64,000 nt of DNA from positions 32,001-96,000 of the IMG/VR virus record IMGVR_UViG_3300021170_000008. One strand, 5' to 3'. Position numbers and translations under genes: made by a program. Position 1 is the stretch's first letter; each line of letters opens with the position of its first letter. Shown here one piece after another: positions 29,141-59,790 of this stretch. The notes beneath the pieces were generated by a model that saw nothing but the letters and a program-made list of their open reading frames with translations, ran no database searches and was not told the DNA's origin. The stretch is from a virus.

Positions 29141-30763
29141 TTACAGCAAATCACCCTGCCCACCGGACCTCATTTTTGCTACGCTAGAAAGATTCCACTT
29201 TCCAAGCCTTGGTTTGGCCACTGGCAACAGCATCTGCTGATTGATCGGCATTAAGTTGAATGCTTTGATCTGATCTTCTCCAAAACCTATGAATTCGATA
29301 CGAGAATTCGCGTAGAGCTTGAATTTGGCGCAGGGATTGGGCGGGATGAACGTAGGAGTTACAAAAAACTCTGACCCGCAGAAGTCGTTCAACATTCCAC
29401 AGGTTCCCATCATTTGGCCATTACTCCTGAAGGACATAGCAATTGAGTTTAGTTCGGCAGGTGGCGGCACGGTGCCATTGATATGGTACGGCGGGATGAG
29501 AAGTTGGTTCAGTTCGTTATCGAAAAACACCGTCGGGCCAGTCCAGCTTGTATCGCTTGCTGCCCGAGTGTAGGTAATAATCTGCTCCCAACCTTCACCG
29601 AGTGGGCCTTCGTCATCAAAAGCGTTGCGCGTGTGGCAGATCGCAACGTAATACCTAGATTCGTCGGCATTTGTAAAGAAATACGGAGGCCCCTCCTCTG
29701 AATCCTCGAAGTCATAAACGGAGTCTATAAGCTCAAACGTAAAAGATGGACCAGATGCCGAGCTAGTGATCAAAAACCAGCAATTTGGTATGACCGGCGG
29801 AGCCGGAGACCAGACTCCGGGATCTATCTCACTACAAATCGTAGGGAAAATAATTTTATTTACAGACGCAAGATACCTGGGAACGCTACTGACTGCGAAC
29901 AGCGAAAACCCAGGACCGGCTGTTCCGAGCGTGGTCGATACAAGCGTATCATCCACCAATGCTCCTGTTGAATTTATCCTGGCACAGCGAAATTGCGTAA
30001 CATCGGTAACGTTACTCTGCGGAAAAGTGTAATACACGTCAGCGGTGAAGTAGAACACCCATGAAATACCGCTTCCGTCTACGCAGGCACCGACTACATC
30101 ACCAGATAGGTTATGAATATTGGATGTGTTTTGAGGGCCAAATTGACCCTGGAAGATAGTGAGAGGCGAACTCCAAGAGCTTCCATTCCATAGGGTAGCC
30201 TTAACGTTGCTATATGAATCCCCAGCAGAGAAGCCTCCGTTTGTAAAATACTCATCATAGACAACTAGGAACGTAGTGGCGTTGATCATCGTCGCTGTGA
30301 ACCACGGAAAGACTCTATCATTCCCTAACAGGAAATGTGGAACCACTCCGTTTGAGGTTATTGGCGATCCGTACGATCCTAGTCCATTGGCAGAAAGATT
30401 GAATGGGACTATCTCTATTTCTCCTGTGTCATTGCGCTGATACACCCCAAGAGCGCGCGTGTTAGCTATATCCAAGATCCAATACACAAGCGATGACTGC
30501 GGGGCATTGAGCCTTGGAGCGTTTGCCGAGTCCAGTACCGTCCATACAACGCCGTCGGGGCTAGATGATACACCCATCACGTCATTATCGAAGTTATCCA
30601 CGTATGGGTCGATTAAATTTGAATAAAATACATAGATATAGCCACCGTACTCTATTGGCGGTACAGTGAAGTTAGCCCCCCTATAGAAACCACCATCCCA
30701 CAAGGATGGTTGCCCAAGGGATACGTGCGGGTCGAGTTGATTGACTAGATACGGTACTGGCAT
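29141..30763 (-). CDS. beta-rich putative receptor-binding protein with shared C-terminal CAKFKLY tag
   Basis: Aromatic/beta-rich, propeller-like body; tail region. Confidence 0.55.
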   Translation of the reverse strand: MPVPYLVNQLDPHVSLGQPSLWDGGFYRGANFTVPPIEYGGYIYVFYSNLIDPYVDNFDNDVMGVSSSPDGVVWTVLDSANAPRLNAPQSSLVYWILDIANTRALGVYQRNDTGEIEIVPFNLSANGLGSYGSPITSNGVVPHFLLGNDRVFPWFTATMINATTFLVVYDEYFTNGGFSAGDSYSNVKATLWNGSSWSSPLTIFQGQFGPQNTSNIHNLSGDVVGACVDGSGISWVFYFTADVYYTFPQSNVTDVTQFRCARINSTGALVDDTLVSTTLGTAGPGFSLFAVSSVPRYLASVNKIIFPTICSEIDPGVWSPAPPVIPNCWFLITSSASGPSFTFELIDSVYDFEDSEEGPPYFFTNADESRYYVAICHTRNAFDDEGPLGEGWEQIITYTRAASDTSWTGPTVFFDNELNQLLIPPYHINGTVPPPAELNSIAMSFRSNGQMMGTCGMLNDFCGSEFFVTPTFIPPNPCAKFKLYANSRIEFIGFGEDQIKAFNLMPINQQMLLPVAKPRLGKWNLSSVAKMRSGGQGDLL

Positions 30764-31032
30764 TAGGTCTTAGGGATAGCCGCTTCACACGCCGCAATAT
30801 CCTCATCGCTTATCGTGATCTTGTGATCTGCTGCCCATTTCTGAGCCTGCTCTATTGAGTCCACGAAACGGGACATATGTATTTCAGGTATAGCTAAAAT
30901 GAACTTAAGTACCGCTCCCTTTCTACTTCCTTCCGTGCTCTTGATAATTATCCCGCCACAGTGCTGCACATCTGAGCAAGGATGCCGAAACGGCACTAAT
31001 CGCGCCACCTTAACGCCTAACATCATACCCAC
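30763..31032 (-). CDS. hypothetical protein
   Basis: GTG after GGAGGG; TAATG coupling. Confidence 0.5.
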   Translation of the reverse strand: MGMMLGVKVARLVPFRHPCSDVQHCGGIIIKSTEGSRKGAVLKFILAIPEIHMSRFVDSIEQAQKWAADHKITISDEDIAACEAAIPKT

Positions 31033-31034
31033 GT

Positions 31035-31487
31035 TTACCCCTCCGTCTCTCCAGCCGCAGTTAGGTTCCACATCCCAACTCGTGGCTCCGTCACCGGTAG
31101 CATCATCTCTTCGTCAACCTGGACTAAATTAAAGGATTGGATCTGATCTTCCCCGAAACCAATAAATTCGATAATTGAACTGGAGTAAAGTTTGAACTTG
31201 GCGCATTGCGATACCGAAGTATCGTATAATACTTCGAATATATTACCAGTAGTACCAAGGAGGAATATACTGGATAGATCGTACGAGCTACCGGCGATAG
31301 GGAAAAACTGAGATCCACCACCGACTATAATAGCCCCACGGCCAGACCCTATATTGGCGTCTCCGACCCTTGTGTCCGAGTTACCGATACTGGATTGAAT
31401 CTGAATCCAGGAAGCTAATACGGAGATCGAAGATAGCGGAACTTTTTGCCCCGTAGTAGCCGTAACGTCGGATATCGATACAATCAC
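31035..31487 (-). CDS. small structural protein (paralog of 34930-35217) with CAKFKLY tag
   Basis: N-terminal ~93 aa aligns with 34930-35217; C-terminus aligns with the end of 29141-30763. Confidence 0.65.
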   Translation of the reverse strand: MIVSISDVTATTGQKVPLSSISVLASWIQIQSSIGNSDTRVGDANIGSGRGAIIVGGGSQFFPIAGSSYDLSSIFLLGTTGNIFEVLYDTSVSQCAKFKLYSSSIIEFIGFGEDQIQSFNLVQVDEEMMLPVTEPRVGMWNLTAAGETEG

Positions 31488-31499
31488 AGTAGAGGTCTT

Positions 31500-31784
31500 T
31501 CATTGCTTCGTATCTGGCTTTGCGTCCTGCTTAGATTGAGTAGGCGCAGGCGGCAGAGCTAGCGTACATACCGGTTCCTGGAATTGGTCTATTTGCAAAA
31601 CCATTCCGCGAGTCTGGCAATCCGCAATCTTTACCTTCAGGTGATCCTCACGTTCCTGCTGAGCTTTGCGGAGATTGGCCGTTAGGCGATGATATTCGCG
31701 AAGCCATTGTGCGTCAGATTTTTGCTGTGATGTTTCCGCTAGAATTAGCGTAGCTAGGCAAGCCATAGCGAGTATTATTTTCAT
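31500..31784 (-). CDS. signal-peptide coiled-coil protein with Cys pair
   Basis: MKIILAMACLATLILA signal peptide. Confidence 0.55.
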   Translation of the reverse strand: MKIILAMACLATLILAETSQQKSDAQWLREYHRLTANLRKAQQEREDHLKVKIADCQTRGMVLQIDQFQEPVCTLALPPAPTQSKQDAKPDTKQ

Positions 31785-31872
31785 GGATTTATTTTACACC
31801 ATAGCCTCTTCCCTGAATATTATCCTACGCCGATGTTCTGGCGTTTTGCAAACCCGTCTAACCTGGATAGAC

Positions 31873-32901
31873 TCATGGGGTGTTACTCGTCATCCCCTCG
31901 ATTGTGGTAACTAGCGTAGAGATAGGCATGGGGGCAATCGTCAGCTTAATGTGTGAGTGCCCCGTGACGGAAGTCCCGGCATTCGTACCTGTGTAGTATT
32001 TGTAAGTCGAGCCGTTGACCTCAAGATGCCATCCGTCGGCCAGCCCGCCCCCGTCGGTTGTCAGTTCATCAGGACTTGCAGGATAAAAGGTTTGCCCGGT
32101 GAAATAGGTACTCCTGTCTGGGTTAAGAGTCCACGGACCAGCCAGCGATGTAGCGGTCCAGCGTGCTATTCCCCAGTGTGCGACCACCTGGGCGGCCCAC
32201 ACCCAATAGTTGCTGCCGACCTTTGCAATCCACGGGCCGCTGCATCCCGGTCCGCTGATGATCAGATTACCGGAATTGACCTTGGTCCATGGGCCGGTCA
32301 GCGCCGTGGCTGTAGCCCCTCCACACTCAAAGTCCCCGCCGTTATTTCCTTCGTAGACCATCGTCCAGGTCCCGCCGTCATTGAACATGCTGGAGTTTTC
32401 AATCGCGTCCTGATCGAAGGCCCCACTCGATCCTTTTGTCAGGACGTTTGAGGCGGCTAGGGTCCACGTCAGCCCGTCGCTGTCGGGGCTTGTCAGCACG
32501 TCCATGTTATTTGTGCTAAAATTCTTGGCGAACTCGTAAAACGTCGAGCCGTTGTGAACGATGTTCCCTCGGTGGTAATTAGTGATAACCGGATTGCCCG
32601 AATACTTGGTCCAGCCCGTCATGCCATCCGCGCTTTCCGCGTATCCTATCCCGGTCGCTCCACTCCATCCATCGCCTGAATACCACATGGCAAAGCACGG
32701 GCTAGGGATAAGTTGACATCCGGTCGCTCGCTGAAGTACTCGCGGCTCCTCAATCGAAGTGTTTTCCCATGCCTGTGTTGCTGTTAGCACGGTTCCCTGC
32801 CGAACCCAAACTGGGGCAGGGGGATCAGTGGTATTAATATACCGAGAAGCACGTGTTCCCGTTGATAAAAAGAGCAGTAGCAGCAGAAGTAGAGCCTTCG
32901 T
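31873..32901 (-). CDS. five-bladed beta-propeller glycoside hydrolase-like protein (GH43/32/130-like)
   Basis: EEPRV, MWYSG, IGYAES.DG..WTK...NPVI, GPWT repeats; start codon uncertain. Confidence 0.7.
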   Translation of the reverse strand, partial: TKALLLLLLLFLSTGTRASRYINTTDPPAPVWVRQGTVLTATQAWENTSIEEPRVLQRATGCQLIPSPCFAMWYSGDGWSGATGIGYAESADGMTGWTKYSGNPVITNYHRGNIVHNGSTFYEFAKNFSTNNMDVLTSPDSDGLTWTLAASNVLTKGSSGAFDQDAIENSSMFNDGGTWTMVYEGNNGGDFECGGATATALTGPWTKVNSGNLIISGPGCSGPWIAKVGSNYWVWAAQVVAHWGIARWTATSLAGPWTLNPDRSTYFTGQTFYPASPDELTTDGGGLADGWHLEVNGSTYKYYTGTNAGTSVTGHSHIKLTIAPMPISTLVTTIEGMTSNTP

Positions 32902-34927
32902 ATTGGAATACTCCTGCGGTCGTGATGTTGAACTCGTCCACGCCCCCCGCCGCGCCGGTTCGAGTGTCATACGCAAAGGCTACTTGGACTGATGCGGGGC
33001 GATAACCACCCGGAAGAGTGGCCATTGTCGTACCCGCTGTTAGCGTCCCTAATGAAAGCAACCCACGAATGCACACGTTTCCAAAATTATCTTTTTTGAA
33101 CTGACCGACTTGATTGCCAGATCCAAAGTCACCCCAACCATTGCTATACGATAAGCCTGTCCATGTAGTATCCGGGCCGCTGATTTTGCGTAACGCTGTA
33201 CCATCATACTCAAGTACGTACACACCGCCTGCGATTATATCACTGGCAACAAGGGCTGAACCCGTCGTATTTGCCGCGATAACGCTCTTGGCTGTGAACC
33301 CGCACCAAGCCACCGTGGACGCGCCGGTATTAGAGGCCTGAGGAACAAATATAAATTGGGCTCCAGTTGTTAGCGAGGTAGGACAAAAACTAGCAGATGG
33401 GCATGTGTATGTTGTTGTAGACCCGGTAGCATCAGCACAATAGGATAAACCGCTTATACTTACGGTCCCAGTCGATCCATTCACACTCGTCACAGGAGCA
33501 GCAGTCGCGGCAAACGGCATCACGCCACCTGAGCGCTGCGTGATCGAGTTGCTCGTACTCCCCGTTGAAGTAGTTACCGTGAAGTCCACAAACAGCGAGG
33601 CAGTGAGATCGATATTACTAGATACCGCCGTGTTGGTATCGTTAAAAACGCTATCCGGAGAAGTCGAAAGAGATCCTAGGTCAACCGTCAACGGCCCGTG
33701 GATTTCAAGATTCCCAGTTGTTCCGGTTGCCGACGTATACCCAAGGAAATTCACGTTCCATGTGTTATTCGTGGAGTTGGCTAATGTGGCCGTTGAAGCA
33801 ATCGACGCGAGCGTAACCACCGTGCCGCTTCCACAGCCTGATACCGTGCAGAGCTTCACCTTGAATGTAAGAGTCGGAGTCTGCCCTATAGGTGTTGTAT
33901 AGACACCCGCGCCGTTGAACAAAAAAGGCTGACGAAGGCTATTGAAATAACCAGACCCCAGGGTAAGTTCAATCAATTGCTGCTCAGAAGTACTATTAGC
34001 CGATACGGTTACTGGGGTTACGCTGGTAACCGAAGTACCGGTAGCGCCGCTACCCGTCCCGCAAGCGGCTCCCGCGTCCGCAATGTTGAACTTCCCTCCG
34101 CTAGAAACGAGCTTAGCGCAATCGTTATTAACATAAGAAGCATCCGTTGGCAGCTTTAAGGATGCTGCCGCTGTGGCGGCACTCATATCTAACGTCATCG
34201 CTGATGTTCCGGTGTTGGTGCCCTGATTGCGAACTAAGTTCGCCGTATCAGCAAGATTTGTAGACGTAAACCCGGTGAACACTCCAGTAGATATACCAGA
34301 AGAAGGAGACCCCCACAGAAGAAAATTATTCGCGGACGGAGCCGCTCCAGGATAAAGCAGTCCATAGCTAGTTACGGAGGCTGGGGCGAGTAAACTTACC
34401 GCCGTCGTCCCAAGTACTGGTAGTGTACCTTGACCAAGGTCGAGCGCACCAGCTACGCCCGACCCAGACCCGGACGTGAGCGCCCCGGTAACAGTTAGGC
34501 TGGTGCCCGTAGCTACTCCGATTACCGGAGTTATGAGTGTCGGCGTATTATTAAATACAGCAAGTCCGGTACCGGTTGGGTTTGAAAGAATACCAAGTAG
34601 TTGCGCTGAAGTGGTCGAAGCGAACTGACTAAGTGGGTTTAATACGGATGCTGCGTTAGTTACCTGCCCTACGGTATAATCTCCGGATGTCGCAACAACC
34701 GCTCCGGTCCTAGAAAATACACTCGACACGGCTCCGCCGCCACCGGAAATAGCACCCCATGTGCCGCTCTGGCAGGTGTAGAATGTACCATTCGGAGTTA
34801 ACAAGCGAATCTGCGTGTTTCCACAAGCCCCAGATGGGGTAGCCGTCACGAATTGTATTTGTGGGTTGTTCGGCTGTGCCAATGCCACCCCGAGCAACAT
34901 AAATAGCAAAAGTGGAAGTTTTCGCAT
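32834..34927 (-). CDS. tail-fibre-like protein with Sec-type signal peptide
   Basis: VSSVFSRTGAV repeat, Thr/Gly-rich, C-terminal LPGGYRP domain; MRKLPLLLFMLLGVALA start. Confidence 0.7.
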   Translation of the reverse strand: MRKLPLLLFMLLGVALAQPNNPQIQFVTATPSGACGNTQIRLLTPNGTFYTCQSGTWGAISGGGGAVSSVFSRTGAVVATSGDYTVGQVTNAASVLNPLSQFASTTSAQLLGILSNPTGTGLAVFNNTPTLITPVIGVATGTSLTVTGALTSGSGSGVAGALDLGQGTLPVLGTTAVSLLAPASVTSYGLLYPGAAPSANNFLLWGSPSSGISTGVFTGFTSTNLADTANLVRNQGTNTGTSAMTLDMSAATAAASLKLPTDASYVNNDCAKLVSSGGKFNIADAGAACGTGSGATGTSVTSVTPVTVSANSTSEQQLIELTLGSGYFNSLRQPFLFNGAGVYTTPIGQTPTLTFKVKLCTVSGCGSGTVVTLASIASTATLANSTNNTWNVNFLGYTSATGTTGNLEIHGPLTVDLGSLSTSPDSVFNDTNTAVSSNIDLTASLFVDFTVTTSTGSTSNSITQRSGGVMPFAATAAPVTSVNGSTGTVSISGLSYCADATGSTTTYTCPSASFCPTSLTTGAQFIFVPQASNTGASTVAWCGFTAKSVIAANTTGSALVASDIIAGGVYVLEYDGTALRKISGPDTTWTGLSYSNGWGDFGSGNQVGQFKKDNFGNVCIRGLLSLGTLTAGTTMATLPGGYRPASVQVAFAYDTRTGAAGGVDEFNITTAGVFQYEGSTSAATALFINGNTCFSVY

Positions 34928-34929
34928 AG

Positions 34930-35217
34930 TTATACCGTATTGTAAATTACCTGAAACGTATCTGACGTGGTCCCTCTAATGAATATCTGCGAAAGATCAT
35001 ATTGATTAGTGGATGCCGCAGGTGGAGCAAACTGAGAACCGGATGCGGATATTATGGCCCCCCTTGTGGCCGAGATGTTGCCATCGCCGATCCTAGCCGT
35101 GGCTGAGTTATTTGAGGAAGCCTGGACCTGAACCCAATTAGCCAAAACCGAAGTGGATGAAAGAGCTACATTAGAATTAGTCGTAGCTGTAACGTCAGGC
35201 AGTGATAGGATTGCCAT
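34930..35217 (-). CDS. small structural protein
   Basis: Paralog of the N-terminus of 31035-31487; SD GGAG. Confidence 0.6.
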   Translation of the reverse strand: MAILSLPDVTATTNSNVALSSTSVLANWVQVQASSNNSATARIGDGNISATRGAIISASGSQFAPPAASTNQYDLSQIFIRGTTSDTFQVIYNTV

Positions 35218-35378
35218 CTGCATCTCCAATATAGACAGGTATTCATAAATACTCCCGCCGTCTTGGGCATTAGCCCTTCGTTAAGTATTATCGGATCAGG
35301 ATGTTTGCTGACATGCTGTCGGCGTACCGGTACGCTTAGCGGTAGGACATGGAGACATATCGGGCCGATCTCAATTTA

Positions 35379-38300
35379 TCAAGAAGTAGCCGATCCTGGG
35401 TCTGGACAAGGAGTGGAAAGCTGGAACCTATAGTTCCTGCTTTTGTTTAACACTCCGTCTAGCTTGGCTGGGAAATAGAATCTCTCAGTGTCGCGATTTG
35501 CGTGAGCTGGAAGTACTAATTGATAAAACTCAACTGCGTTCTCCACGTAGAACGTCACGGTAAGCGGGCCAGAAGACCAGTATGTCAACCAACACTCTTT
35601 GAGAGCCTTCCACCCCGGATATCCCATATTTGTCTCAAAGCTATCATACCAGACGAGTTCCGCAGGCTCTGGTATGTAATCCAACCCGGTAGTAAAAACC
35701 TGAGCCTTTCCGCCGTTCCCAGGTGTCAGGACGATCCTCCACAGCCTACCAACAAGTAGCCTAGGGTCCTGCTCAGAGTTCAACCCAATTATCCTCTCCC
35801 TGTCGTTGAAGTTAGTGGTAACCGTGATGGTCTTCCTGGTTGTCCCATCTGCCTGGATCTGAATAGTACACGGTACCCCGGCAGTGTCTATATTCATAAC
35901 AAGATTACGCGCTACTTTCTCGTAAGGATGTCCGAGATCTGACCACTCTGTCCAAAAGAGCACGTCCGGTGGATACTTCTCGAAAGAGATTTTATACTTC
36001 CTAACGATCTGAGCATTCGCGTCGAGTGTCGTCGGCCTCAGCCTGATCTTCTTAACAATTGTTCCATCGTTGATCGGAAAAGTCACTTGCGTCCAGCTTG
36101 GACCCGTGAACGTCCCCGTAAGCGGCTCTAGGGTGAAGCTCTGGACACCCTGCGTTACGACCTGAGAGTTGGTAATTCCCGTGATTGTATCCATCGTCCA
36201 GGTATGCGGCGTAGATTTCATGTCATACCAGATTGATATTTCGTAGAGCCTTTTATCGTCCGGAGTACCTAGGTCGTCCCAATCGAAAGCTCGGCCAACC
36301 TGAATTTGGTCCAGCGAGAATACATTGAACGTATTCGTATAGAAGTTTACGTTCGTTGTCGTTGTTCCAGAGAACCGCATCTGGATCGCATAGGCTTCTT
36401 TGCCGAAGCCGTTCTGGAAACGCTGAGGGATTCGTCTGCGGCCTTGCGCTGCACCGGCAGCCAGCGTCACGGAGTCCGTTGGGTCCGGAGTTAAGGAATA
36501 GTCGTATGTCACCTGGACATTGATCGCTCCGCCGTCGTTGTTTGTCTCCAGAACGTAATCCGCGAACTGTTTATTTATGGATGGCTGACCGGCAGTGTAG
36601 GCCGCTGATTCGAAAGCATAGGCAATGCCAGCCCCGTCGCTATAAGCATTTATCCATCCCTCTGATGTCCCAACGTCGTCAAAATATAAATTAGCCGTCG
36701 TGTTCGGTGTAAGGGTGACCGACTTAGCGATCAGTGTGTTACTTTCTACCGTCTGAGAGCTATTGATGTCGTACCGAAAACCGTCATCCTGTTCGGCATA
36801 TTGAGCGGTTACAGCTACGCCACCTACTGGGTTGTGTGGGTCCAGATCTCCGATATCCTCCATCGACCAGCGGTCGTAGAGCATGTCATAGCGAAGACGA
36901 TGATAAGATCCAGAGATGCCCGCGTAAACCATGTAGATACGCTGCTTGGAGTACATCATCGTGATGATGTCCTTGGGCGCGATTTCGGGCAGGGAGATCT
37001 GAACGGTACCGCTGGCTCCTGAGCCTCCTGGCTCAATAAAAGAAACAAGCGGTGTAGAGGTATATCCAGACCCACCGTTAGTGATCGTTACTGATGTCAC
37101 CTGACCACCGCTTACAGTAGCTGTTGCTGTCGCCCCAGACCCACCCCCACCGGAGAAAACTACCTGCGGGGCAAATCCATAGAACGACCCGCCGCTGGTA
37201 ATCGTGACTCCTGTGATAGCCCCAGGGTTATTGCTGTTGCCGGTGAGATCGATTGGCTCGTAAGGGCCTATGGTGTATCCATGAAACAGCGGATCGATAG
37301 CTTCGCTGCGCTTAACTGCTCGGCCACCAGACCAGGAATAGATGCCGTCGTAGCCTAAATACCAGATCTCATTTTGAGCCCGGCACCACGCCATACTACC
37401 GTAGAGACCACGCTCAGCTAGTGTTTCTACCGGGGATTGCATCTGTCCCTCAAAAACAGCGACAAGATACAACTTCTCCAGATTCATACAGAGTATTTCA
37501 CCGTTGAACTCGGTGATGTTCATGATCGCGTTTGACGGAGATCCTACGTTGATCTGGTCAAAAACACCGGTATTGAACTCTTCAACTGGGAATGCTTCCG
37601 GCCTGCCGTTTTTAGATTTGTACAGAACATGCGGGTTATTTTGGTCACCGGCGCAGAATACGGCATCAAAGGCCGCTACCGTAAATCTTGCTGGCTGAGC
37701 GCAGACGGCATCGCATGACACAAACACTGATGTCCCGAGAGTGGCCGCATCGGTATGATCGTATTGGAAATATGCAGTGATCGTCACCGGGCTCACCGCG
37801 ATTACATATGCCGTTTCCTGTTTTGAGGTGTTCGGGGCAATCGTCAGTGTAGATCCAACCCTCAAGAAAGATGTCAAATCCGTTGTCGATAGACCAGATA
37901 TTATGTTTACCTTAAAGGCATTGACCCCAATCTTGCCAGTACCTGCCGTATAGGAAACAAACGATGCAGTCAGGGGCGTCGGCAGGGTACTCAAAACAGG
38001 CGGATCGTTGTCGAAGGAAATAATCGGAGCATTGATAATCGAAGCATCCGACTGACTATCCACAAACGTGACGACCTGTGGTATCTGGTTGATGTCTACG
38101 CTGTTGATGGCATACCCCAGAAACCTATATAGGCCGTCAGAGAAGGCACCGCCGCTGCGATAGACAGCGATAGCGGCATTGTTGGTCGTCGGCGCAGATG
38201 GGTTAGCGGGCGCTCCTGAAATCTGGTTATCCGAACTGGAGATGAGCGTCAGCTTTACGCGCTGCCTGAGTGGAGTAACGGTATTCGTATCGAGCATGAG

Positions 38301-39821
38301 CGTGCATGGATTGCTCTCAAATCCAGTGATAGTGTTCCTATAGGTATAGGCATAGGAGTAGGCGTTCAAGGGCGCGTTGAACGATGTCGTGAAGGCATTC
38401 GGCCCGAATCCTCCGGCGATATAAATGTTCCCAATCCAGAGAGTAATAGACGGATCTCCAACGGAGACGATCTGAAATCCGACTACATTGGCCCAGTTAT
38501 ACTTACCCTGACCGGCCAAACCAACCGGAAGGAAGTTCGGCTTGGGGATGTCAATCTCGGTCCAGACAGGTACGCTGGTAGACTGATCGGGACCAACTTG
38601 GGCCAATTCCTCTGCTTTAGCGGAAGTCGCTGTCGGATCGGCGATATCGAAATTACCGCTTACGCCAGTAGCGACATTAGTGGCGACTCCAGGAAGCGTC
38701 TGGGTTGCTGTAGCTAGTACCGATGCTTGCATTTGAAGCTGGCTCGGAAGAATCTCTTTTTCGTAGTAATCAGTTCCGGATGCGCTATTGACCATTACCC
38801 GGATACGGAGATCGGTGAGTAGGTCAGGCTGGGAGATGCCGATAGCCACATGAACAACGTCGTCGGTTTCATATCCGTCGTCCGGCTGACCGTCAAAATT
38901 AGCCGGTACCGGACTGACAGATCCACCCGGCAATGGGATTACAGTTACGGTCCCAGGAGCAGCCGTGGGAGTGTCTGTTATGAATCCCGAGATGACCTGT
39001 TGGCCAGCTACCGGGGTCCCCGGAAGGTAGACCTGGAATGACGTACTCGTGGTCTGTTCTACGATCCCAAGGTTGATGGCTCCGACCTTAACTAATAGGC
39101 CGACAATAATACCTGACATGGAGACAGGAGTTATGGCCACTAACCCAGGGCCGGTTCCTGATACAGATAAGATAGTCGTATTGATTCTGGAGTTATTATC
39201 TACAACCGCAAGCGGAGTGCCTGCGCCGTTCTGCGGCAAAAGTGTTATCTGATCAAGCCGTGCCTGTACTGGTTGCGTCGGAGGCAAGATCCCCCAGCGC
39301 TGAATAATCGTAGTCGGGATACCGCTGCCGTCTCCGCTGTTCAGGAATCCGGTATCTTTGAGCATTTTACGCTGAGCGCCGATGAAGGCGTACGGCGTAC
39401 CGTTCGCGCCGGAGTTGTAGCGCGTCAGGGAGAATCGCTGCTGGTCGTAGGTGGCTTGGACATCGGCGCAGTCCCCGGCCACGCTATGGAACGTCTGTGT
39501 GGCACCGGTGGGTGCTAGGGGACCGGTCGCTCGAAAGATCTCGCCGCCATTTCCACAGTAAAAAACATCCGTTGTCGATGATGTCCGGAGCTTATTGATG
39601 GTATGAATGAGAGACAGGCTGATCGGCCCAGTTTGCCGAATCCAGCCGGTATGAGCCGTAACTCGCCTATTCCCCGGTCGCTGAGTGATCACCCCCTCTT
39701 GGATGGATGTGATATTAGTGGCTTCCGATAGCTCCCCATCCTGTAGCTGCGCCACGTCTTTCTTTAGCACCAACCCCTTAACGGAGAATGGTACGACAAC
39801 GGGATTGAACGGAGTAGGCAT
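35379..39821 (-). CDS. tail hub / DNA stabilization protein (P22 gp10 / T7 gp12-like), 1480 aa
   Basis: N-terminal N....G....RPG, propeller region, four C-terminal G.P..K repeats; follows adaptors. Confidence 0.65.
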   Translation of the reverse strand: MPTPFNPVVVPFSVKGLVLKKDVAQLQDGELSEATNITSIQEGVITQRPGNRRVTAHTGWIRQTGPISLSLIHTINKLRTSSTTDVFYCGNGGEIFRATGPLAPTGATQTFHSVAGDCADVQATYDQQRFSLTRYNSGANGTPYAFIGAQRKMLKDTGFLNSGDGSGIPTTIIQRWGILPPTQPVQARLDQITLLPQNGAGTPLAVVDNNSRINTTILSVSGTGPGLVAITPVSMSGIIVGLLVKVGAINLGIVEQTTSTSFQVYLPGTPVAGQQVISGFITDTPTAAPGTVTVIPLPGGSVSPVPANFDGQPDDGYETDDVVHVAIGISQPDLLTDLRIRVMVNSASGTDYYEKEILPSQLQMQASVLATATQTLPGVATNVATGVSGNFDIADPTATSAKAEELAQVGPDQSTSVPVWTEIDIPKPNFLPVGLAGQGKYNWANVVGFQIVSVGDPSITLWIGNIYIAGGFGPNAFTTSFNAPLNAYSYAYTYRNTITGFESNPCTLMLDTNTVTPLRQRVKLTLISSSDNQISGAPANPSAPTTNNAAIAVYRSGGAFSDGLYRFLGYAINSVDINQIPQVVTFVDSQSDASIINAPIISFDNDPPVLSTLPTPLTASFVSYTAGTGKIGVNAFKVNIISGLSTTDLTSFLRVGSTLTIAPNTSKQETAYVIAVSPVTITAYFQYDHTDAATLGTSVFVSCDAVCAQPARFTVAAFDAVFCAGDQNNPHVLYKSKNGRPEAFPVEEFNTGVFDQINVGSPSNAIMNITEFNGEILCMNLEKLYLVAVFEGQMQSPVETLAERGLYGSMAWCRAQNEIWYLGYDGIYSWSGGRAVKRSEAIDPLFHGYTIGPYEPIDLTGNSNNPGAITGVTITSGGSFYGFAPQVVFSGGGGSGATATATVSGGQVTSVTITNGGSGYTSTPLVSFIEPGGSGASGTVQISLPEIAPKDIITMMYSKQRIYMVYAGISGSYHRLRYDMLYDRWSMEDIGDLDPHNPVGGVAVTAQYAEQDDGFRYDINSSQTVESNTLIAKSVTLTPNTTANLYFDDVGTSEGWINAYSDGAGIAYAFESAAYTAGQPSINKQFADYVLETNNDGGAINVQVTYDYSLTPDPTDSVTLAAGAAQGRRRIPQRFQNGFGKEAYAIQMRFSGTTTTNVNFYTNTFNVFSLDQIQVGRAFDWDDLGTPDDKRLYEISIWYDMKSTPHTWTMDTITGITNSQVVTQGVQSFTLEPLTGTFTGPSWTQVTFPINDGTIVKKIRLRPTTLDANAQIVRKYKISFEKYPPDVLFWTEWSDLGHPYEKVARNLVMNIDTAGVPCTIQIQADGTTRKTITVTTNFNDRERIIGLNSEQDPRLLVGRLWRIVLTPGNGGKAQVFTTGLDYIPEPAELVWYDSFETNMGYPGWKALKECWLTYWSSGPLTVTFYVENAVEFYQLVLPAHANRDTERFYFPAKLDGVLNKSRNYRFQLSTPCPDPGSATS

Positions 39822-40884: not shown

Positions 40885-41538
40885 CTAATCTTTCTGAACT
40901 GTCTCCGGGATGTAAAATTTTGGCATAACGGTTCCGCGCCAGATACTTGCTCGTTTCATGATATGGAGATACTGCTGGTAGTAAGCCGCAGACTGTTTGA
41001 ATAGCGCCGCCGTCTCTTTGATCGTGACTACCTGGGAAGCCATCAATACCACTGGGTCAGTATACTCATTGGGGATCACAACAGTGTCCGTGTCATTCAC
41101 CAGAAGCGCCGGTTCTGCTACCCCGGTCATCGTTAGAGCGGCTCCGCCGAGTGAGTCAGCAGGATGTATAGCGAACTTCTTAAAACCGCAGGGGACCCAT
41201 TGGGACACCGGCAAGGCGGTGTTGTCTGTAGTATCCCTAACCCAAGTAGCGTTTGACTTACCGATCTGGTTGGCGAAGGTCTTCTGGAGGTAGGTATCTT
41301 CGAACTGGACTCTGATAGGTATGAAGATCGATTCCGGAACGTCGTACCACACGCGCCCTGGTTCGGTTATTCCAGTGCCGACCGGAACGGTCGTCTGGAT
41401 CATCCCGGTGAAGTTATTAAAGCAGCGGATACACTCGTTGATAGCGTTAGTTAGCTCAGATTCCGCGTAGAAGAGTCGATTGTCATCGATACGTGAAAAT
41501 ACGCGGTTTTTGAGTTGTAGGAGCGTGACCGTTGGCAC
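40885..41538 (-). CDS. head-tail adaptor-like protein
   Basis: TL..LK.RV..R.D...EL...INE N-terminus. Confidence 0.6.
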   Translation of the reverse strand: MPTVTLLQLKNRVFSRIDDNRLFYAESELTNAINECIRCFNNFTGMIQTTVPVGTGITEPGRVWYDVPESIFIPIRVQFEDTYLQKTFANQIGKSNATWVRDTTDNTALPVSQWVPCGFKKFAIHPADSLGGAALTMTGVAEPALLVNDTDTVVIPNEYTDPVVLMASQVVTIKETAALFKQSAAYYQQYLHIMKRASIWRGTVMPKFYIPETVQKD

Positions 41539-45318: not shown

Positions 45319-46326
45319 TTAATTGATTGACTGCTTGCCTTTCTCCGGCACGGCGTCTACCGTAGCCTTGAATAACTCCGCAAAAGATCCCTTTGGCTTC
45401 TTACTGGATTTTCTGGATTCGATCATTCTGCGCTTTTCTATGGTGGTAAAATCCACCGAAGTAACATACGATCCGCCCCAGAATACTTCCCGGTTAAATT
45501 CCAACGGCTCCGGCCTGACAGCGCCGGGCATACACCAATATGCACATACCTTTTCCATGTACTTGTGAACCAAGGAGTGCTCGAACTTACGCAATACGGC
45601 TAAGTTTTCTACACGATTGTCCAACTTGATGAGATTCAAGTGGTGAACCACTTCGTCGATCTCCAGATATCTACCAATAGCCGACTCAGCCACATAGCGG
45701 TGCTCTGACACATATCCTTCCGGATTGGCACCAGGATGTCCCGGCATCTGGATTTTACGATAACCCTGACATTCAAACCGGTAGGTATATTTTTTCCTGT
45801 TTGCCTCAAGCCTTCTGCTGGCGACTTCGGATCTATCGATACCCAGGCCATATCGGATAATGTTGGTTCTGACGGTGGATTCGCCACATCCAAAATGCTT
45901 GCAGATTTCCCCCATGGTCTGTTTTTTATTAACGTACATCTCGTGGAGTTCTTCGCGCGGAATCTCGTGGACGACTAGCGCTGTCTCCCGCCTGATCCCA
46001 TGCCTTTTCCGATAAATGGCCACAGTTACATTACTCACGCCAAGCTGGCGACCAATTTCAGCATCCGTCAATTTTTGGTCAATATATAGTGCCCGCAGTT
46101 CGTCAGCCGTCAATTTAAACTTCCTGGGCGGAGCTACGTACGGCAGGCGGTCTACCTTTAGCCGAAGGGCGATCTCTTTCTGGATACCGTACTCCTTCAA
46201 GCGCTTCTCCACTACGCCGCCAGAGACGCCAAAATACTTGGCGATGTGCGTCACCTTCATATTCCGGGTAATGTACATCTCCCGGAGCGTCTCTGCGGTT
46301 TCGTTGAATGTTCTTGGTCTGGCCAT
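45319..46326 (-). CDS. HNH endonuclease with three HTH repeats
   Basis: YVSEHRYV.E..IGR.L...EVVHH.N..K.DNR.ENL; leaderless promoter TTGACG-17-GATCAT. Confidence 0.85.
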   Translation of the reverse strand: MARPRTFNETAETLREMYITRNMKVTHIAKYFGVSGGVVEKRLKEYGIQKEIALRLKVDRLPYVAPPRKFKLTADELRALYIDQKLTDAEIGRQLGVSNVTVAIYRKRHGIRRETALVVHEIPREELHEMYVNKKQTMGEICKHFGCGESTVRTNIIRYGLGIDRSEVASRRLEANRKKYTYRFECQGYRKIQMPGHPGANPEGYVSEHRYVAESAIGRYLEIDEVVHHLNLIKLDNRVENLAVLRKFEHSLVHKYMEKVCAYWCMPGAVRPEPLEFNREVFWGGSYVTSVDFTTIEKRRMIESRKSSKKPKGSFAELFKATVDAVPEKGKQSIN

Positions 46327-46366
46327 AATTGATGATCTCACGTTTTGTGTGGATCGTCAAGTTATA

Positions 46367-47452
46367 TTACAACAATGAGGTGCCCACGAGCTTAGCCGAG
46401 GTTCTGGGATTAGCGCAGACCAAATTTCCAGCCCAAACGAACTGCCCTGCTACGTCGAGAGATTGCTGCGCTTCCTTGAATCCAGTGAACCCAAACTGCG
46501 CCGATTTCGCATCAGAACTGAACATTTCGAGGTAGTTGGTGTTCAAAAGTAGCATGACCCCGTTAACAGAATCTGACGGCAAATATTTGTCTACGACGAC
46601 AGTGCTCGCGTTGAACTGGAACGCATTGAAACCGATCTTCCCCACGTCCGTGCCGCTGGCGTCCATGTTGTAGCGCTGGAGCGGCTGGATCGAGTTCCAC
46701 ATCCGGTTGTAGCCGGTCTGCGTGGTCGTGATCAGGTCCGGAAAATCTCTTCCAAACCAAGCGTTTCCGTATGCCGTATTTACGTCATTTAGCGTAAATG
46801 GGCTGAACGACCGGTTGGTATAGGAGTTTAATCCCTGGATCGCACTAGTAGGCGTCGTCGCGCCGGTGAACACCGGGGCCGTGGTGAAGAAGTCGGATCT
46901 CGTCTGTCCGCCGACCGCTAAGAACGACTTGGTCGAATCCGTGGCCGTCGAGTACGATCCGGAGCTATTCCCGTCGTCTACCCAGGCCAGAAGTCCATCA
47001 AGTGACTTCGTACCAGACAGAGCGCCGGTAAACGGCGGTGCTACAGAGGACTGACCGTCCTGGTAGAGCGCCGTCGCGATCAGCTTAGCCATCGTCATCG
47101 AAGCGTTAGCGAACTTCGACTCGACGATTGAGAATGCCGCCTGCGGACCACGGTTTAAGATGTTATCGATGAAGTACAGGCTGACGTTTACGTAAACCGT
47201 CTTCACGTTCACCGTTACCGCCGTGTCGGTGGTAACGTAGGCGATATTTATAGCATCGCCCTTCCCGAACCAGTCTCCGTTAAGCTGTGCGTATATCAAC
47301 GGAGACTGGATGTAGGTACCACCCGCGAATCGCATTCTCCGGCGTCCCAACATCCGCGCCAGAAGTGGCGACTCTTTAAAAATTACATCGGTCGTTCTCT
47401 CGACGATGTACTGCTCTGTATAAGCAGTCAGATCCGATAGCGATAGCGCCAT
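46367..47452 (-). CDS. major capsid protein
   Basis: 361 aa after scaffold; GG..I..P..YA and GL motifs typical of HK97-fold capsids. Confidence 0.8.
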   Translation of the reverse strand: MALSLSDLTAYTEQYIVERTTDVIFKESPLLARMLGRRRMRFAGGTYIQSPLIYAQLNGDWFGKGDAINIAYVTTDTAVTVNVKTVYVNVSLYFIDNILNRGPQAAFSIVESKFANASMTMAKLIATALYQDGQSSVAPPFTGALSGTKSLDGLLAWVDDGNSSGSYSTATDSTKSFLAVGGQTRSDFFTTAPVFTGATTPTSAIQGLNSYTNRSFSPFTLNDVNTAYGNAWFGRDFPDLITTTQTGYNRMWNSIQPLQRYNMDASGTDVGKIGFNAFQFNASTVVVDKYLPSDSVNGVMLLLNTNYLEMFSSDAKSAQFGFTGFKEAQQSLDVAGQFVWAGNLVCANPRTSAKLVGTSLL

Positions 47453-49514: not shown

Positions 49515-51371
49515 TTATAGCTTGCCGGACTTCTCTTGCTTGCCGCGTGGAGATTTTCCGGACGGAGAAAGACCTGATTCTTTCTCCTGCATAAGTTGCT
49601 TTATAAGCTCGTCGGCGTTAGGAAGTTCAAGGACCCGATACAGTTCCTTGAGTGGGAGAGCCCCACGGGCATATAGCTGCATTGCGAACATCTTCTCGCG
49701 GTCGCGAGATCCACCATGGATAGATCCAGATTTGATCCGCATTCCGAAGTTCTTCCAGTGATCCCATTTAGGAAGCTGGTAATTTGGAACAAGCGATCCT
49801 GGGTCGTAATCGAAATCAGCAAGGGTCACACCATCAGCGCCGTACTGCTTCATGCGTTGCTGGGTCGTGTAGAACTGGAAGACATTCGATAATGCCTGCG
49901 TCCCTACATCACGTATAAATACCTCTACGTAACGCTCTTCCAGGCGCAGTGAAGTGTTAAGTGAGTCGCGCATCTGATCCAGGGTTTCCCCGCTCGGGAC
50001 CTGTTTCTTTTTCGAAAGCGCGTTAACATCTACAGCGTTTGACATCCGGTCAAATTCTGGGATCAGGTACTGCAAAAGCAACTGAAACACATAGGCCGGA
50101 ATGTCTGGCGGGTCCATGTAGCGTAGATCCGTAGCTACATTCGCCATCGGACCCATGTATAACTTAGCCCCAGGCATGTCCGAGAAAAACTCTTTCCAGG
50201 ACGCCGATGGGATCGCTCCAGTCTTTGTAATGGCCTGCGGGTTAAGCGCCCGCTTGACCATATCGAGGACACCAGCTACGATCTCGTTGATGGCGTTGTT
50301 GATTGGCAGTAAATCCCGATACTGACTTAGTCCCCAGAACGACCATGGGATCGGGTTTAATCTGAGCGCCGCAAACGGATACAGCCCGTGCCAAAAAGGA
50401 GACGGGCCGTCGTATAGCCGCCTACGTCCGCCGAAAATTATCAGGCGTTTTCTAGGATAGAGACGTTCCCCAGGCTGGACCCAGTACCACCAATTGTAAG
50501 CATCAAGTGGCCAATATGGGTGCCGCATCAGAACCGGCCTGCGGGATTCGTTGATGCTCGGATCGTCTACATAAATCTCTTGAAGCTCAACTGACCTAAA
50601 AATAGAAGATACGGCCTCCGGTGGTGGGTTTGCCCCACCGAGGGCTCTTTGCATCGCCGGTGATAATCCATTCCAGACATACTCGTCTACGTTGTCGGGG
50701 CGGTTGTACTTAGCGTTCTGTCCACGGACATCAAATACAGATGCTTCTTTGTCAATCCCCTCAGAGTCGAACGGGAAGCGTGTCCTGTAATACGATATGG
50801 CCTTCCAGGTCTTATATAGAACACCAGTCGATTCCTGGATACCAAACCCAGGCTGTACTGGCATAACAGAGTCAGGACCACAGGAAATAACACGCATTGA
50901 TCCAGGGTAAGCAGCCCCAATCTTCCAGAATCCTGTACCCATGAGCTTGGTGATGTCGGCGACACGGACCAGATCGAGGTCCATGTCTTTGTCCATCCAC
51001 TCGTGTTCGAAGATTCTCTTTACGATCTCAGATTGCTGCTGAAGATCCGGTCTGCGGCTGAATACGTCGATTACCGGCCTGGAGTCTGTCAACATCGACA
51101 GATTGTCGATCCTGGCTTTGTTGAGACGGTTGCTACTAAAAGCCGATTTGTAGCGTGGACGGCGGCGATCCCAGTAATCTCCACTTATACTTTTTATGTA
51201 GGTGGGGATTTTCTTGAGTTCTTCGTTCAGGCGAGCCGTGTCTTGGGCTTCCTGCTTGAACTGCTCACGCCAGTATTGTAACTTTTTTTCGTACCCATCC
51301 GGAGATGAAGAACGGGCCTCAGGCGAAGAGTCGAACCACATTGGACCATTAGGGAGCGTTTCCGACGGCAT
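49515..51371 (-). CDS. portal protein
   Basis: 618 aa; GTGF.K, PF.HG.YPF, SFWG.S and N.IN motifs; downstream of terminase. Confidence 0.85.
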   Translation of the reverse strand: MPSETLPNGPMWFDSSPEARSSSPDGYEKKLQYWREQFKQEAQDTARLNEELKKIPTYIKSISGDYWDRRRPRYKSAFSSNRLNKARIDNLSMLTDSRPVIDVFSRRPDLQQQSEIVKRIFEHEWMDKDMDLDLVRVADITKLMGTGFWKIGAAYPGSMRVISCGPDSVMPVQPGFGIQESTGVLYKTWKAISYYRTRFPFDSEGIDKEASVFDVRGQNAKYNRPDNVDEYVWNGLSPAMQRALGGANPPPEAVSSIFRSVELQEIYVDDPSINESRRPVLMRHPYWPLDAYNWWYWVQPGERLYPRKRLIIFGGRRRLYDGPSPFWHGLYPFAALRLNPIPWSFWGLSQYRDLLPINNAINEIVAGVLDMVKRALNPQAITKTGAIPSASWKEFFSDMPGAKLYMGPMANVATDLRYMDPPDIPAYVFQLLLQYLIPEFDRMSNAVDVNALSKKKQVPSGETLDQMRDSLNTSLRLEERYVEVFIRDVGTQALSNVFQFYTTQQRMKQYGADGVTLADFDYDPGSLVPNYQLPKWDHWKNFGMRIKSGSIHGGSRDREKMFAMQLYARGALPLKELYRVLELPNADELIKQLMQEKESGLSPSGKSPRGKQEKSGKL

Positions 51372-53149: not shown

Positions 53150-53923
53150 CTGCCCAACACATTTACAATCCACTGCGGCGATTGCCTGGACGTGATGCGA
53201 ACGCTGCCATCAAAAAGTATTGATATTGTTTTTACGAGTCCTCCATACAACCTGCAAACCCACATAACAAAAGGTAAGAACTACTGGTTAACTGTTGGCA
53301 AGATGAAAAAATCTAGGCTAGGCAAGGGGTATGCCGCCAGCAAAGATGACATGCCGTATGACGAGTATGTGCGCTGGCAGAAATCTGTACTGCTTGAATG
53401 CTGGAGATTATTAACCGATACCGGGGCTATATTCTACAATCACAAGCCGCGTATCCAGGATGGGCTTCTGTACACTCCGTTAGACCTTAATCCTGGATTG
53501 CCTGTACGGCAGATCCTGATCTGGAAACGCGCCGGTGGCATAAACTGCTCACCTACGTTCTTCATGTCAACACATGAGTGGATTGTGATATTCGCCAAGC
53601 CAGCGTTCCAGATACGCGACCGCTCGGCGTCTGGGATCGGGGATGTCTGGGAGATCCACCAGGGCAATCAGTCAAACCAGCCAAAGCACCCGGCTCCATT
53701 CCCTATGGAATTGCCGCTGCGGGCACTGACGGCGTTACGCAAGGAAGAGCGGGTAATCTTGGACCCGTTCATGGGCTCCGGAACTACCGGCGCAGCCTGC
53801 ATGAAGACCAAGCGCGACTTCATCGGTATAGACATCTCAAAAGAATACTGCGATATGGCCAGAAATAGAATATCCTTGGCGCAGCGTGGAGATTTCTATT
53901 CCTGGATGGAGTACGGAAACTAA
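53150..53923 (+). CDS. orphan N4/N6 DNA methyltransferase, beta class
   Basis: GDCL, TSPPYN, HPAPFP, LDPFMGSGTT; start probably CTG 53150. Confidence 0.9.
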   Translation: MPNTFTIHCGDCLDVMRTLPSKSIDIVFTSPPYNLQTHITKGKNYWLTVGKMKKSRLGKGYAASKDDMPYDEYVRWQKSVLLECWRLLTDTGAIFYNHKPRIQDGLLYTPLDLNPGLPVRQILIWKRAGGINCSPTFFMSTHEWIVIFAKPAFQIRDRSASGIGDVWEIHQGNQSNQPKHPAPFPMELPLRALTALRKEERVILDPFMGSGTTGAACMKTKRDFIGIDISKEYCDMARNRISLAQRGDFYSWMEYGN

Positions 53924-56628: not shown

Positions 56629-56656
56629 TTCTATTATTGTCGGACGGTGGGAGTAG

Positions 56657-56729
56657 TGCCGGTGGAGGGACTTGCACCCACACTTGGACGGCTTTTAAGG
56701 CCGTTTTCTCTGCGTTGGAATACACCGGC
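56657..56729 (-). tRNA. tRNA-Leu(TAA), short variable loop
   Basis: ACGGC-CTTAAAA-GCCGT arm. Confidence 0.8.
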
Positions 56730-56735
56730 GAGATG

Positions 56736-56827
56736 TGGTGGGCGACGAGGGAGTTGAACCCCCAGCGGGTCCGAAGGACCTCCAGTTCTACAGACTGGCG
56801 CGGGCTACCGATACCCGCAAGACGCCC
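56736..56827 (-). tRNA. tRNA-Tyr(GTA)
   Basis: CCAGT-CTGTAGA-ACTGG; long V arm; CCA. Confidence 0.8.
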
Positions 56828-56828
56828 A

Positions 56829-56915
56829 TGGCGGAAGCGGCGTGACTCGAACACGCATGACCTATTCGGTCCCGATATTAGCAGTATCGTGGGATACCAT
56901 TTACCCGACGCTTCC
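56829..56915 (-). tRNA. tRNA-Ser(GCT)
   Basis: CGATA-CTGCTAA-TATCG; V arm; CCA. Confidence 0.85.
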
Positions 56916-57383
56916 GTTTGAAATGGCAGGGCTGGCAAGGGTCGAACTCGCAATCGCTGTTTTGGAAGCAGCTACCGTCACCGTCCGGTCAGCCCTATAA
57001 ATTCTACGCTTTCTGTTTGCCTCCGCACGGAAAACCATACAGATATCACACTTGCATTTCCGCTTGAATGCAAAGGACCAGCCACCATGTGTTGCCTTCT
57101 GATTATCCCCATTTTCTCTTGTCTTTTCCAGATGGCACGGCTTGCATAATAACTGGCACTTCAAAAGCTCAGCCTCAAATAAATCCTTTCTCTTCTGCCA
57201 CATCCTTCCGATGTCGCCAACCTTAGTGGCCGGATCGATATGGTCAAAATCAAGATTCTTGGTAGCCCCACATCGGACGCATTTGCCTCCTAATTTAGCT
57301 AGCGCGTACTGCCTGCGGCGCTCCCTCCACTTCGGTAGATAATCCCGAAGATATTCCTGCATTTTCTTGCGAGTGTAGGCCAT
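56901..57383 (-). CDS. HNH endonuclease in tRNA array
   Basis: LGGKC..CG...L.FDHIDP..K, KCQLLC..CH; leaderless promoter TTGCGC-17-TAAACT. Confidence 0.85.
   Translation of the reverse strand: MAYTRKKMQEYLRDYLPKWRERRRQYALAKLGGKCVRCGATKNLDFDHIDPATKVGDIGRMWQKRKDLFEAELLKCQLLCKPCHLEKTRENGDNQKATHGGWSFAFKRKCKCDICMVFRAEANRKRRIYRADRTVTVAASKTAIASSTLASPAISNGSVG
56924..56996 (-). tRNA. tRNA-Trp(CCA)
   Basis: TTCCAAA loop; CCA. Confidence 0.75.
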
Positions 57384-57425
57384 GCGGAAGTTTATCACGC
57401 AGGCACTCACCGCGCAAATTAAAAG

Positions 57426-57519
57426 TGGAGGAGGACCAGGGTCTCCAACCCTGACACCCGTTTAGGGTCTGCTGGGTTCGGGCCAGTGGCCGTTAGGGCG
57501 AATCTCGGCTTAGTCCTCC
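57426..57519 (-). tRNA. atypical tRNA-Ser(CGA)
   Basis: GGAGGAC acceptor; CC-CGA-AC loop; T-loop TTGGAGA; CCA. Confidence 0.55.
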
Positions 57520-57520
57520 A

Positions 57521-57598
57521 TGGTACCCGCCCTCGGATTCGAACCGAGACTGTTCAGTTTCTAAAACTGAGGACTCCTGCCAGTTGGTCTAGGCGGGC
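57521..57598 (-). tRNA. tRNA-Leu(TAG), short variable loop
   Basis: TCAGT-TTTAGAA-ACTGA; CCA. Confidence 0.85.
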
Positions 57599-57617
57599 AA
57601 AATGAATGTCAAAGATC

Positions 57618-57691
57618 TGGAGAGCTAGCGCAGAGTCGAACTGCGTACGTCTCTTTTGCAGAGAGATCCCTGGCCGGTCGGGGTCTAGCTC
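57618..57691 (-). tRNA. tRNA-Cys(GCA)
   Basis: TCTCT-CTGCAAA-AGAGA; U73; CCA. Confidence 0.8.
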
Positions 57692-57796
57692 AAACTGAGT
57701 TTTTGGGATTTAATAACTTGAGAGTTGCAGTCGGGATGACCACAAACAGGAACGCGACAGGAGGGATAAAATGTGTGCGCGGTTCATGTTTAGATA

Positions 57797-58012
57797 TTAC
57801 TTCAATACTTGCGGCGCGTCAAGCATTTTCTTTCTCGTATAGTACTCCCTAGCCGAGAAGTCCATCCCTAAGGCACGCTTAATAACTTCCTCTAGGGGGC
57901 GTAACCCTTGATAGTGGTCTCGCACCGGGAACAATATCTCCTTCCCGTCTACGCACCACATCCACTCGGCCTGCGGCAAATCATTCTTACGGATAACGAC
58001 ACGCGGCTTCAT
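57797..58012 (-). CDS. hypothetical protein
   Basis: MKPRVVIRK start; packed operon. Confidence 0.5.
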   Translation of the reverse strand: MKPRVVIRKNDLPQAEWMWCVDGKEILFPVRDHYQGLRPLEEVIKRALGMDFSAREYYTRKKMLDAPQVLK

Positions 58013-58016
58013 TCTA

Positions 58017-59053: not shown

Positions 59054-59058
59054 AAATT

Positions 59059-59750: not shown

Positions 59751-59755
59751 AAATT

Positions 59756-59785: not shown

Positions 59786-59790
59786 AAAAT

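Follow-up and report, generated by a model that had tools for sequence, protein, structure and literature searches.

An incomplete terminal domain in a predicted podophage nozzle and its possible completion by C-terminal tags on two other tail-module proteins

Phage receptor-binding proteins are normally thought to be attached to the tail via N-terminal anchor domains. The present work deals with the tail module of an uncultured soil phage, whose sequence comes from a metagenome assembly (IMG/VR record IMGVR_UViG_3300021170_000008); the whole stretch of DNA analysed, hereafter “the window”, is 64,000 nucleotides (nt) long and corresponds to bases 32001-96000 of a 106,134-bp single-contig genome. 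It encodes a 1480-amino-acid (aa) protein that resembles podophage nozzles and ends in four repeats (R1-R4), the last of which is cut short. Two other proteins of the same module, of 540 aa and 150 aa, end in a segment, hereafter “the tag”, that is homologous to the end missing from R4; the rest of each tagged protein is called its “passenger”. We propose, with a probability of about 0.7, that R4 of the nozzle is completed in trans by these two C-terminal tails.

In the donor-strand complementation of chaperone-usher pili (Pap/Fim), an immunoglobulin-like (Ig-like) fold without its last strand is completed by another polypeptide. This system relies on N-terminal extensions, a periplasmic chaperone, an usher, and polymerization, whereas the candidate donors in the window are C-terminal and the incomplete fold demonstrably derives from the fission of a complete one. 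Membership in the chaperone-usher class was considered and rejected on account of the C-terminal position of the donors and because a search of the module for chaperone or usher families gave nothing; the two systems have no more than the principle in common. Terminal strands cut from beta-rich domains also serve as portable docking tags in SpyTag/SpyCatcher (CnaB2) and in split GFP (strand 11); these engineered tags are man-made, and SpyTag is isopeptide-locked, whereas the pair described here would be natural and held by at most a possible disulfide.

PilC/PilY adhesins dock on minor pilins through their C-terminal tails by beta-strand augmentation (PMC13711793). As would be the case in the window, two alternative large proteins share a short conserved C-terminal tail that plugs into a beta-sheet, in the pili that of the fibre tip complex; the differences are that the system belongs to type IV pili, that the tail is about 10 residues long, and that it augments a sheet and restores no removed strands. 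In Pseudomonas phage A1002, the nozzle is split between gp39 and gp42 (PMC13730344), and in both phages, an ancestral single nozzle would have been partitioned into two reassembling polypeptides. The core (platform and propeller) of the A1002 nozzle is divided between two dedicated proteins, whereas that of the window is contiguous in the 1480-aa open reading frame (ORF), which can be aligned with single-chain nozzles from one end to the other; the detached part is confined to the end of the final appended domain and serves as a tag shared by two otherwise unrelated passengers.

The nozzle of SU10, gp17, has a chain of four Ig-like domains, the fourth of which touches the short tail fibre (PMC9509320); gp31 of cyanophage A4 is also a podophage nozzle (PMC12002296). 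The window protein appears to have the same platform and beta-propeller core fold as these two proteins and T7 gp12, and its repeats recall the Ig-like domains of SU10. In SU10, however, the Ig-like domains are complete and sit between propeller blades, and the fibres bind a dock loop via their N-termini; in the window, the domains are C-terminal, the final strands of the last one are absent from it and carried by other proteins, and attachment would occur through C-terminal tags. We found no paper in the literature on strand complementation or augmentation with phage nozzle or receptor-binding proteins.

The nozzle protein and the cut in its last repeat

A search of 5.8 billion proteins returned 70 homologues of the 1480-aa protein. 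The nozzle fold was tested on an uncut homologue, P0052 (1130 aa), and not on the window protein itself, the two being aligned over their full length. The features of the gene are the following.

35379..39821, minus strand: nozzle gene, 1480 aa, predicted podophage nozzle core and C-terminal beta-sandwich repeats R1-R4
35646..36614, minus strand: repeats R1-R3, residues 1070-1392, predicted complete beta-sandwiches ending strand-turn-strand (hhalign; six DSSP strands per repeat in the P0052 model)
35382..35645, minus strand: R4, residues 1393-1480, cut-short candidate acceptor (alignment with about 80 uncut homologues)
35376..35414, minus strand: break point, nozzle tail TPCPDPGSATS followed by TGA TAA; Cys1471 lies in the hairpin loop of uncut relatives

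The AlphaFold2 (AF2) model of P0052, built from a 70-sequence alignment, has a predicted local distance difference test score (pLDDT) of 87.5 and a predicted template-modelling score (pTM) of 0.68. Residues 4-787 of this model match solved podophage nozzles: Foldseek finds cyanophage A4 gp31 (E 1.7e-20), SU10 gp17 (E 1.8e-17), and T7 gp12 (about 1e-12), and VIA gives a Z score of 24.4 to SU10 gp17 (462 residues aligned) and of about 20.5 to T7 gp12. Because of these matches, we identify the 1480-aa protein, at the level of models, as a podophage nozzle of the T7 gp12/SU10 gp17 fold, presumably, by homology, a hexameric ring that closes the tail channel; what the initial annotation called a “tail hub” is thus the nozzle, and not a generic hub.

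Beyond the core, the beta-sandwich repeats extend into a region that no solved nozzle covers. The four G.P..K repeats that had been read from the letters are all present, with the quoted strings, and start at residues 1077, 1184, 1296, and 1399; profile-profile comparison with hhalign backs them, pairing R1 with R2 (E 7.5e-6) and R3 (6.9e-6), R2 with R3 (2.7e-34), and R4, the most divergent, with R2 (E 1.4e-4) and R3 (1.8e-3). The whole genome holds only one R4-like domain. Elsewhere in the protein, at residues about 860-945 (window about 36987-37244), there is an Ig-like insert rich in Gly (GGGSGATATATVSGGQVTSVTITNGGSGY...) that is similar to numerous PHROG virion proteins (E to 2.8e-13) and missing from the closest relative, P0058.

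The 1480-aa ORF ends ...LNKSRNYRFQLSTPCPDPGSATS, then TGA TAA. In the window, R4 still has strands 1-5 and every one of the family motifs (YPGWK, LPAH..R..ERFY.P, LNKS..YR), and its final strands are gone: the chain stops in a hairpin loop, directly before the FKLY..S.IE..G.DQ end. In nearly all 70 homologues, LNKS..YR....S is followed by FKLY.D.SR.E....G.DQR..., and the chain ends 35-50 residues further on; counted over all sets, distinct uncut tails number 80, and an uncut form with a C-terminal extension is also found (P0050). The early stop of repeat 4 claimed in the initial annotation is thereby borne out, as about 80 distinct homologues do continue, in their own chain, into the FKLY..IEF segment; that homologues might end at the same place is excluded, with the exception of a second lineage that has the same cut and its own tag on another protein. 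The claim that the last beta-strand is missing holds in that an end is indeed missing, but the piece comprises about 45-50 aa and three predicted strands, not one.

R3 of the P0052 model consists of six strands, and its R4 of five up to HSVDTIP (equivalent to YRFQLST in the window), directly after which come the strands of the segment, FKL, QLEIVP, and VQVK (residues 1094-1096, 1101-1106, and 1116-1119; pLDDT 81-92). By profile alignment, PFKLY falls on the last strand of R3 (GKAQLF; E 1.8e-3) and likewise on that of R2 (E 1.4e-4). R4 thus shows what is expected of an acceptor in fold complementation: it ends after strand 5, where about 80 homologues, as well as R2 and R3, have one or more further strands.

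No tag remnant, frameshifted or pseudogenised, was found past the nozzle stop in any frame of the downstream 150-nt gap. This non-coding gap (window 35230-35378), which follows the double stop of the nozzle, is itself unusual in an operon otherwise tightly packed with start-stop overlaps, and there may be a promoter or a regulatory element inside.

The missing end on two other proteins

The tagged proteins, P0002 (540 aa, 29141-30763) and P0003 (150 aa, 31035-31487), are encoded further along the same strand, with an untagged paralogue of the P0003 passenger next to the gap.

29144..29332, minus strand: tag copy 1 (CAKFKLYANSRIEFIGFGEDQ...GKWNL), C-terminus of P0002, preceded by a Pro-rich linker
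29333..30763, minus strand: passenger of P0002, predicted beta-propeller with sialidase-, polysaccharide lyase-, and glycoside hydrolase-like folds
31038..31205, minus strand: tag copy 2 (CAKFKLYSSSIIEFIGFGEDQ...GMWNL), C-terminus of P0003
31206..31487, minus strand: passenger domain of P0003
34930..35229, minus strand: untagged 99-aa paralogue (P0004) of the P0003 passenger

The two proteins had been described as unrelated except for a shared C-terminal segment, and their likeness is indeed limited to the C-terminal 55 aa (32 identical, 58%, E 8e-24); the corresponding DNAs, 29190-29332 and 31063-31205, are 71% identical across 143 nt. The proposed fit of this segment to the missing end of R4 also withstood scrutiny. 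By BLAST against the C-terminus of P0016, the P0002 tag gives 46% over 59 aa (E 2.6e-14) and the P0003 tag E 1.7e-12. The decisive comparison used a profile restricted to in-chain ends (17 of them) from the window's own clade, run against all 1440 ORFs in the six frames of the genome: just two ORFs were matched, at the C-termini of the 540-aa (E 3e-18) and 150-aa (E 6.2e-16) proteins. When 18 more distant in-chain tags were used for the profile, the P0002 tag was found at only E 5e-4 and that of P0003 was missed. The aligned tags vary too much to be located by sequence patterns. Three residues, F, Y, and E, are near-invariant in in-chain and detached copies alike. Between the two window tags, the proportion of synonymous differences (pS) is 0.83, i.e., saturated, and that of nonsynonymous differences (pN) is 0.19; on this comparison, both tags are under strong purifying selection. 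When P0002 was modelled alone (AF2), tag residues 471-540 came out at pLDDT <50. At the sequence level, the tags are what donors in fold complementation should be, homologues of the missing end, and the same applies to the second lineage presented below.

Cysteines flank the cut in the window: the nozzle reads ...STPC before it, and both tags read CAKFKLY, which together correspond to the loop of the uncut P0071 (PCDTCAK) cut between its two Cys. Such a CxxC motif occurs in the hairpin loop of 6 of the 80 uncut tails (PCDTCAK, PCNTC, SCDEC, PCNAC), and 2 others have a single Cys. Since the window cut falls between the Cys of a loop present in some uncut relatives, a disulfide across the cut, between nozzle C1471 and the tag Cys, is plausible in the window lineage only.

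The first 475 residues of P0002 give ESM Atlas structure matches to BNR/sialidase clusters, with template-modelling scores of 0.60-0.80. The AF2 model of P0002 has pTM 0.68 and pLDDT 58.8, and with this low-confidence model, Foldseek retrieved a PL25 ulvan lyase (E 2.9e-7) as well as propeller glycosidases and the sialidase Neu2. We take a beta-propeller resembling glycan-degrading enzymes as a lead, not a proof, for this passenger. The P0002 family alignment had no match in IMG/VR or metagenome contigs. As for the 99-aa protein, its description as a paralogue without tag was accurate: it matches the N-terminal 92 aa of P0003 (58% identity, E 3e-33) and ends before the tag. Two further relationships were considered and rejected: the P0002 passenger has no similarity to the C-terminal domain of about 410 aa of the nozzle relatives P0058 and P0069, and the P0003/P0004 domain is not related to the C-terminus of P0056-type nozzles.

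A second split lineage and the genome setting

A second lineage, L002-type, is represented by nine IMG/VR loci. Its nozzle ends ...SLNKSKRKRMTIDTVAS*, cut at the same loop as that of the window. A tag, ..FKLYADGSRLEWMACGADQRSAYQQ.., stands at the end of one downstream protein (206, 365, or 687 aa; recorded from 52 contigs), after a linker that is TVT-rich or poly-Pro. In P0088, an uncut relative of this type, the two halves are contiguous, KSKRKRITI...PFKLYADGSRIEWMPCGADQRSAYQQ. A third state is found at L046:9986-15361, a single nozzle ORF of 1792 aa with an insert of roughly 365 aa in the last R4 hairpin, between ...KRKRITIDS and ...PFKVYADGSRLEWMACG...; this insert contains a malectin domain (PF11721, E 2.8e-8). 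In the nozzle-core tree, L046 is sister to the split L002-type clade (support 99), the uncut L045 and P0065 being outgroups, and the window nozzle belongs to a separate clade (99) with the uncut P0012 and P0014. Because the two kinds of split nozzles sit in different well-supported clades, the fission must have occurred at least twice, and the sequences point to a series from uncut to loop insertion to fission. Among the loci examined, a tag-less nozzle always comes with a detached tag, and an uncut nozzle never comes with an extra copy.

The 365-aa tagged protein of L007 carries an F5/8 type C domain. Taken together, the predicted passengers (beta-propeller, F5/8 type C, malectin) look glycan-binding or glycan-degrading, which would fit receptor modules. 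In one L002-type phage, at L005:12545-13165, a family-2 glycosyltransferase-like gene (PF00535, E 5e-9) lies between the cut nozzle and the tagged 687-aa protein.

A separate observation concerns R2. In the closest nozzle relatives of the window (P0056, P0058, P0059, P0069, P0072, P0074, P0075, P0079), the family likeness stops after KK[IV]RLRPK, the penultimate strand of R2; these relatives then carry an unrelated domain of roughly 410 aa ending ..TIYDINTVQF, similar to the last strand of R2. P0072 stops right at RLRPK; RASFVFYDMPLEKQGS, with which P0074 and P0075, homologues of P0002, terminate, is likewise similar to the R2 last strand; and in the fragment P0079, a P0002-like propeller end is joined to the last strand of R2, R3, and R4. 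The last hairpin of R2 may, then, be another site of insertion and fission.

Upstream of the nozzle gene lies a minus-strand head-tail module with an SU10-type adaptor; adaptor and nozzle genes are separated by two small genes, the neighbourhood expected of a podophage nozzle. The other genes of the module are as follows.

31500..34927, minus strand: intervening tail-module genes (697, about 367, and 94 aa)
40885..41538, minus strand: adaptor gene, upstream of the nozzle (Pfam SU10_adaptor PF24175, E 1.2e-7, above the curated cut-off)
46367-47452, minus strand: major head protein
49515-51371, minus strand: portal
53920-56232, minus strand: terminase

The intervening genes had no notable Pfam or PHROG matches. 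An HNH endonuclease gene (window 45319-46341, minus strand; PHROG E 5.6e-32) is found among the head genes, adjoining that of the major head protein, and 25 tRNA genes are clustered downstream of the terminase region (window 56656-63909, minus strand). The deposited-phage collection contained no close relative, the sole match being a 27%-identical stretch in Tunturiibacter phages, and P0001 used alone as a query had no match in IMG/VR. Four soil metatranscriptome contigs from a different study are 100% identical to the window (33844-34232, 34775-34970, 38048-38316, and 38873-39023), so that this phage, or RNA transcribed from it, is present in a second data set; the tags are outside their coverage.

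Completion in trans, its rivals, and its meaning

How could such a nozzle be assembled? R4 would be produced without its last 45 or so residues (strand 6, FKLY..S.IEF, together with one or two more strands), which are encoded as C-terminal tails of two other tail-module proteins. During tail assembly, each tag would probably insert into one R4 of the nozzle hexamer and complete its fold, leaving the passenger tethered to the nozzle via a short Pro-rich linker. In the window lineage, the Cys on either side of the cut loop (nozzle C1471 and the CAK of the tag) may form a disulfide after lysis. As for the origin, a passenger was most likely inserted into the final hairpin loop of R4, and fission of the gene then separated nozzle from passenger.

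The principal rival is that the segment acts as an interaction module in its own right, binding an adjacent nozzle subunit, the tail needle, or some other partner, and not R4; its transfer to other proteins would then bring these to that partner. We consider it unlikely. It draws on the fact that the segment holds more than one strand, with a variable last third (LPVA..G.W.L), and that the uncut P0052 model is known by DSSP and pLDDT only; against it, the first strand of the segment aligns with the last strand of R2 and R3, R4 without the segment has five strands versus six in R3, and the cut lies in the hairpin loop in two lineages, the L046 insertion being at the same loop.

One has also to consider that the tags might be non-functional leftovers of illegitimate recombination, or of a nozzle gene decaying at its 3′ end, which we regard as quite improbable. 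Tail-gene regions are recombination hot spots, and the tag DNAs do form a direct repeat of 143 nt, but leftovers would hardly be expected to combine saturated synonymous sites with a pN as low as that given above, nor to be in frame and C-terminal in both lineages with the near-invariant F, Y, and E kept; moreover, R4 retains all family motifs, and the arrangement is conserved over many contigs and samples.

Protein trans-splicing by an atypical split intein (Cys +1), or another ligation rejoining nozzle and tag, would account for the Cys directly before AKFKLY in both tags and for the nozzle tail starting with Cys. This is very improbable: there is no Hint or intein Pfam match; instead of His-Asn, a Pro precedes the Cys in the 540-aa protein and a Gln in the other; the 475-aa passenger is a predicted beta-propeller, and the 92-aa one has an untagged paralogue; and the L002 lineage is without a nucleophile at the junction. 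Finally, an assembly artefact, or a DNA rearrangement restoring the intact gene in part of the population, is barely credible. The window does come from a metagenome assembly, and the best DNA run is possibly the very source of the window; yet a single 105,910-nt contig crosses the region free of differences and joints, an RNA library from a different study contains 100%-identical fragments, and an unrelated lineage, known from many samples, shares this architecture.

Several points weigh against completion of R4 in trans, or against parts of it. The packing of the segment into R4 is deduced from DSSP, pLDDT, and a weak repeat homology (E 1e-3 to 1e-4). The phage is uncultured, the tagged proteins are known from genes alone, and the contig-level read data are compatible with rare DNA rearrangements. 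On the side of the passengers, the P0002 model was built from a 5-sequence alignment and is of low confidence; for the 92-aa passenger, the search with P0003 found only itself, and ESM Atlas gave no function. As to the disulfide, the L002 lineage has no Cys at the cut, so this bond is not part of the general mechanism.

A broader version of the proposal, to which we would give even odds, is that a natural tag-and-socket arrangement evolved at least twice in short-tailed phages, through loop insertion then fission, in which an obligately incomplete terminal Ig-like domain mounts any tagged protein; in the window, two passengers would share six sockets, in mixed or alternative virions, and be disulfide-locked, with the R2 hairpin maybe acting as a second site.

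If completion of R4 in trans is true, a C-terminal tag that is the missing end of a nozzle domain would represent a different attachment principle for receptor-binding proteins, in a family where the uncut, loop insertion, and fission stages are all visible. It would provide annotators with a signature in sequence by which orphan tail proteins could be matched to their socket, and laboratory phage engineering and protein display with a compact natural tag-and-socket pair, for instance for swaps of host-range modules. It would also account for the way in which a conserved tail comes to carry new glycan-binding modules.

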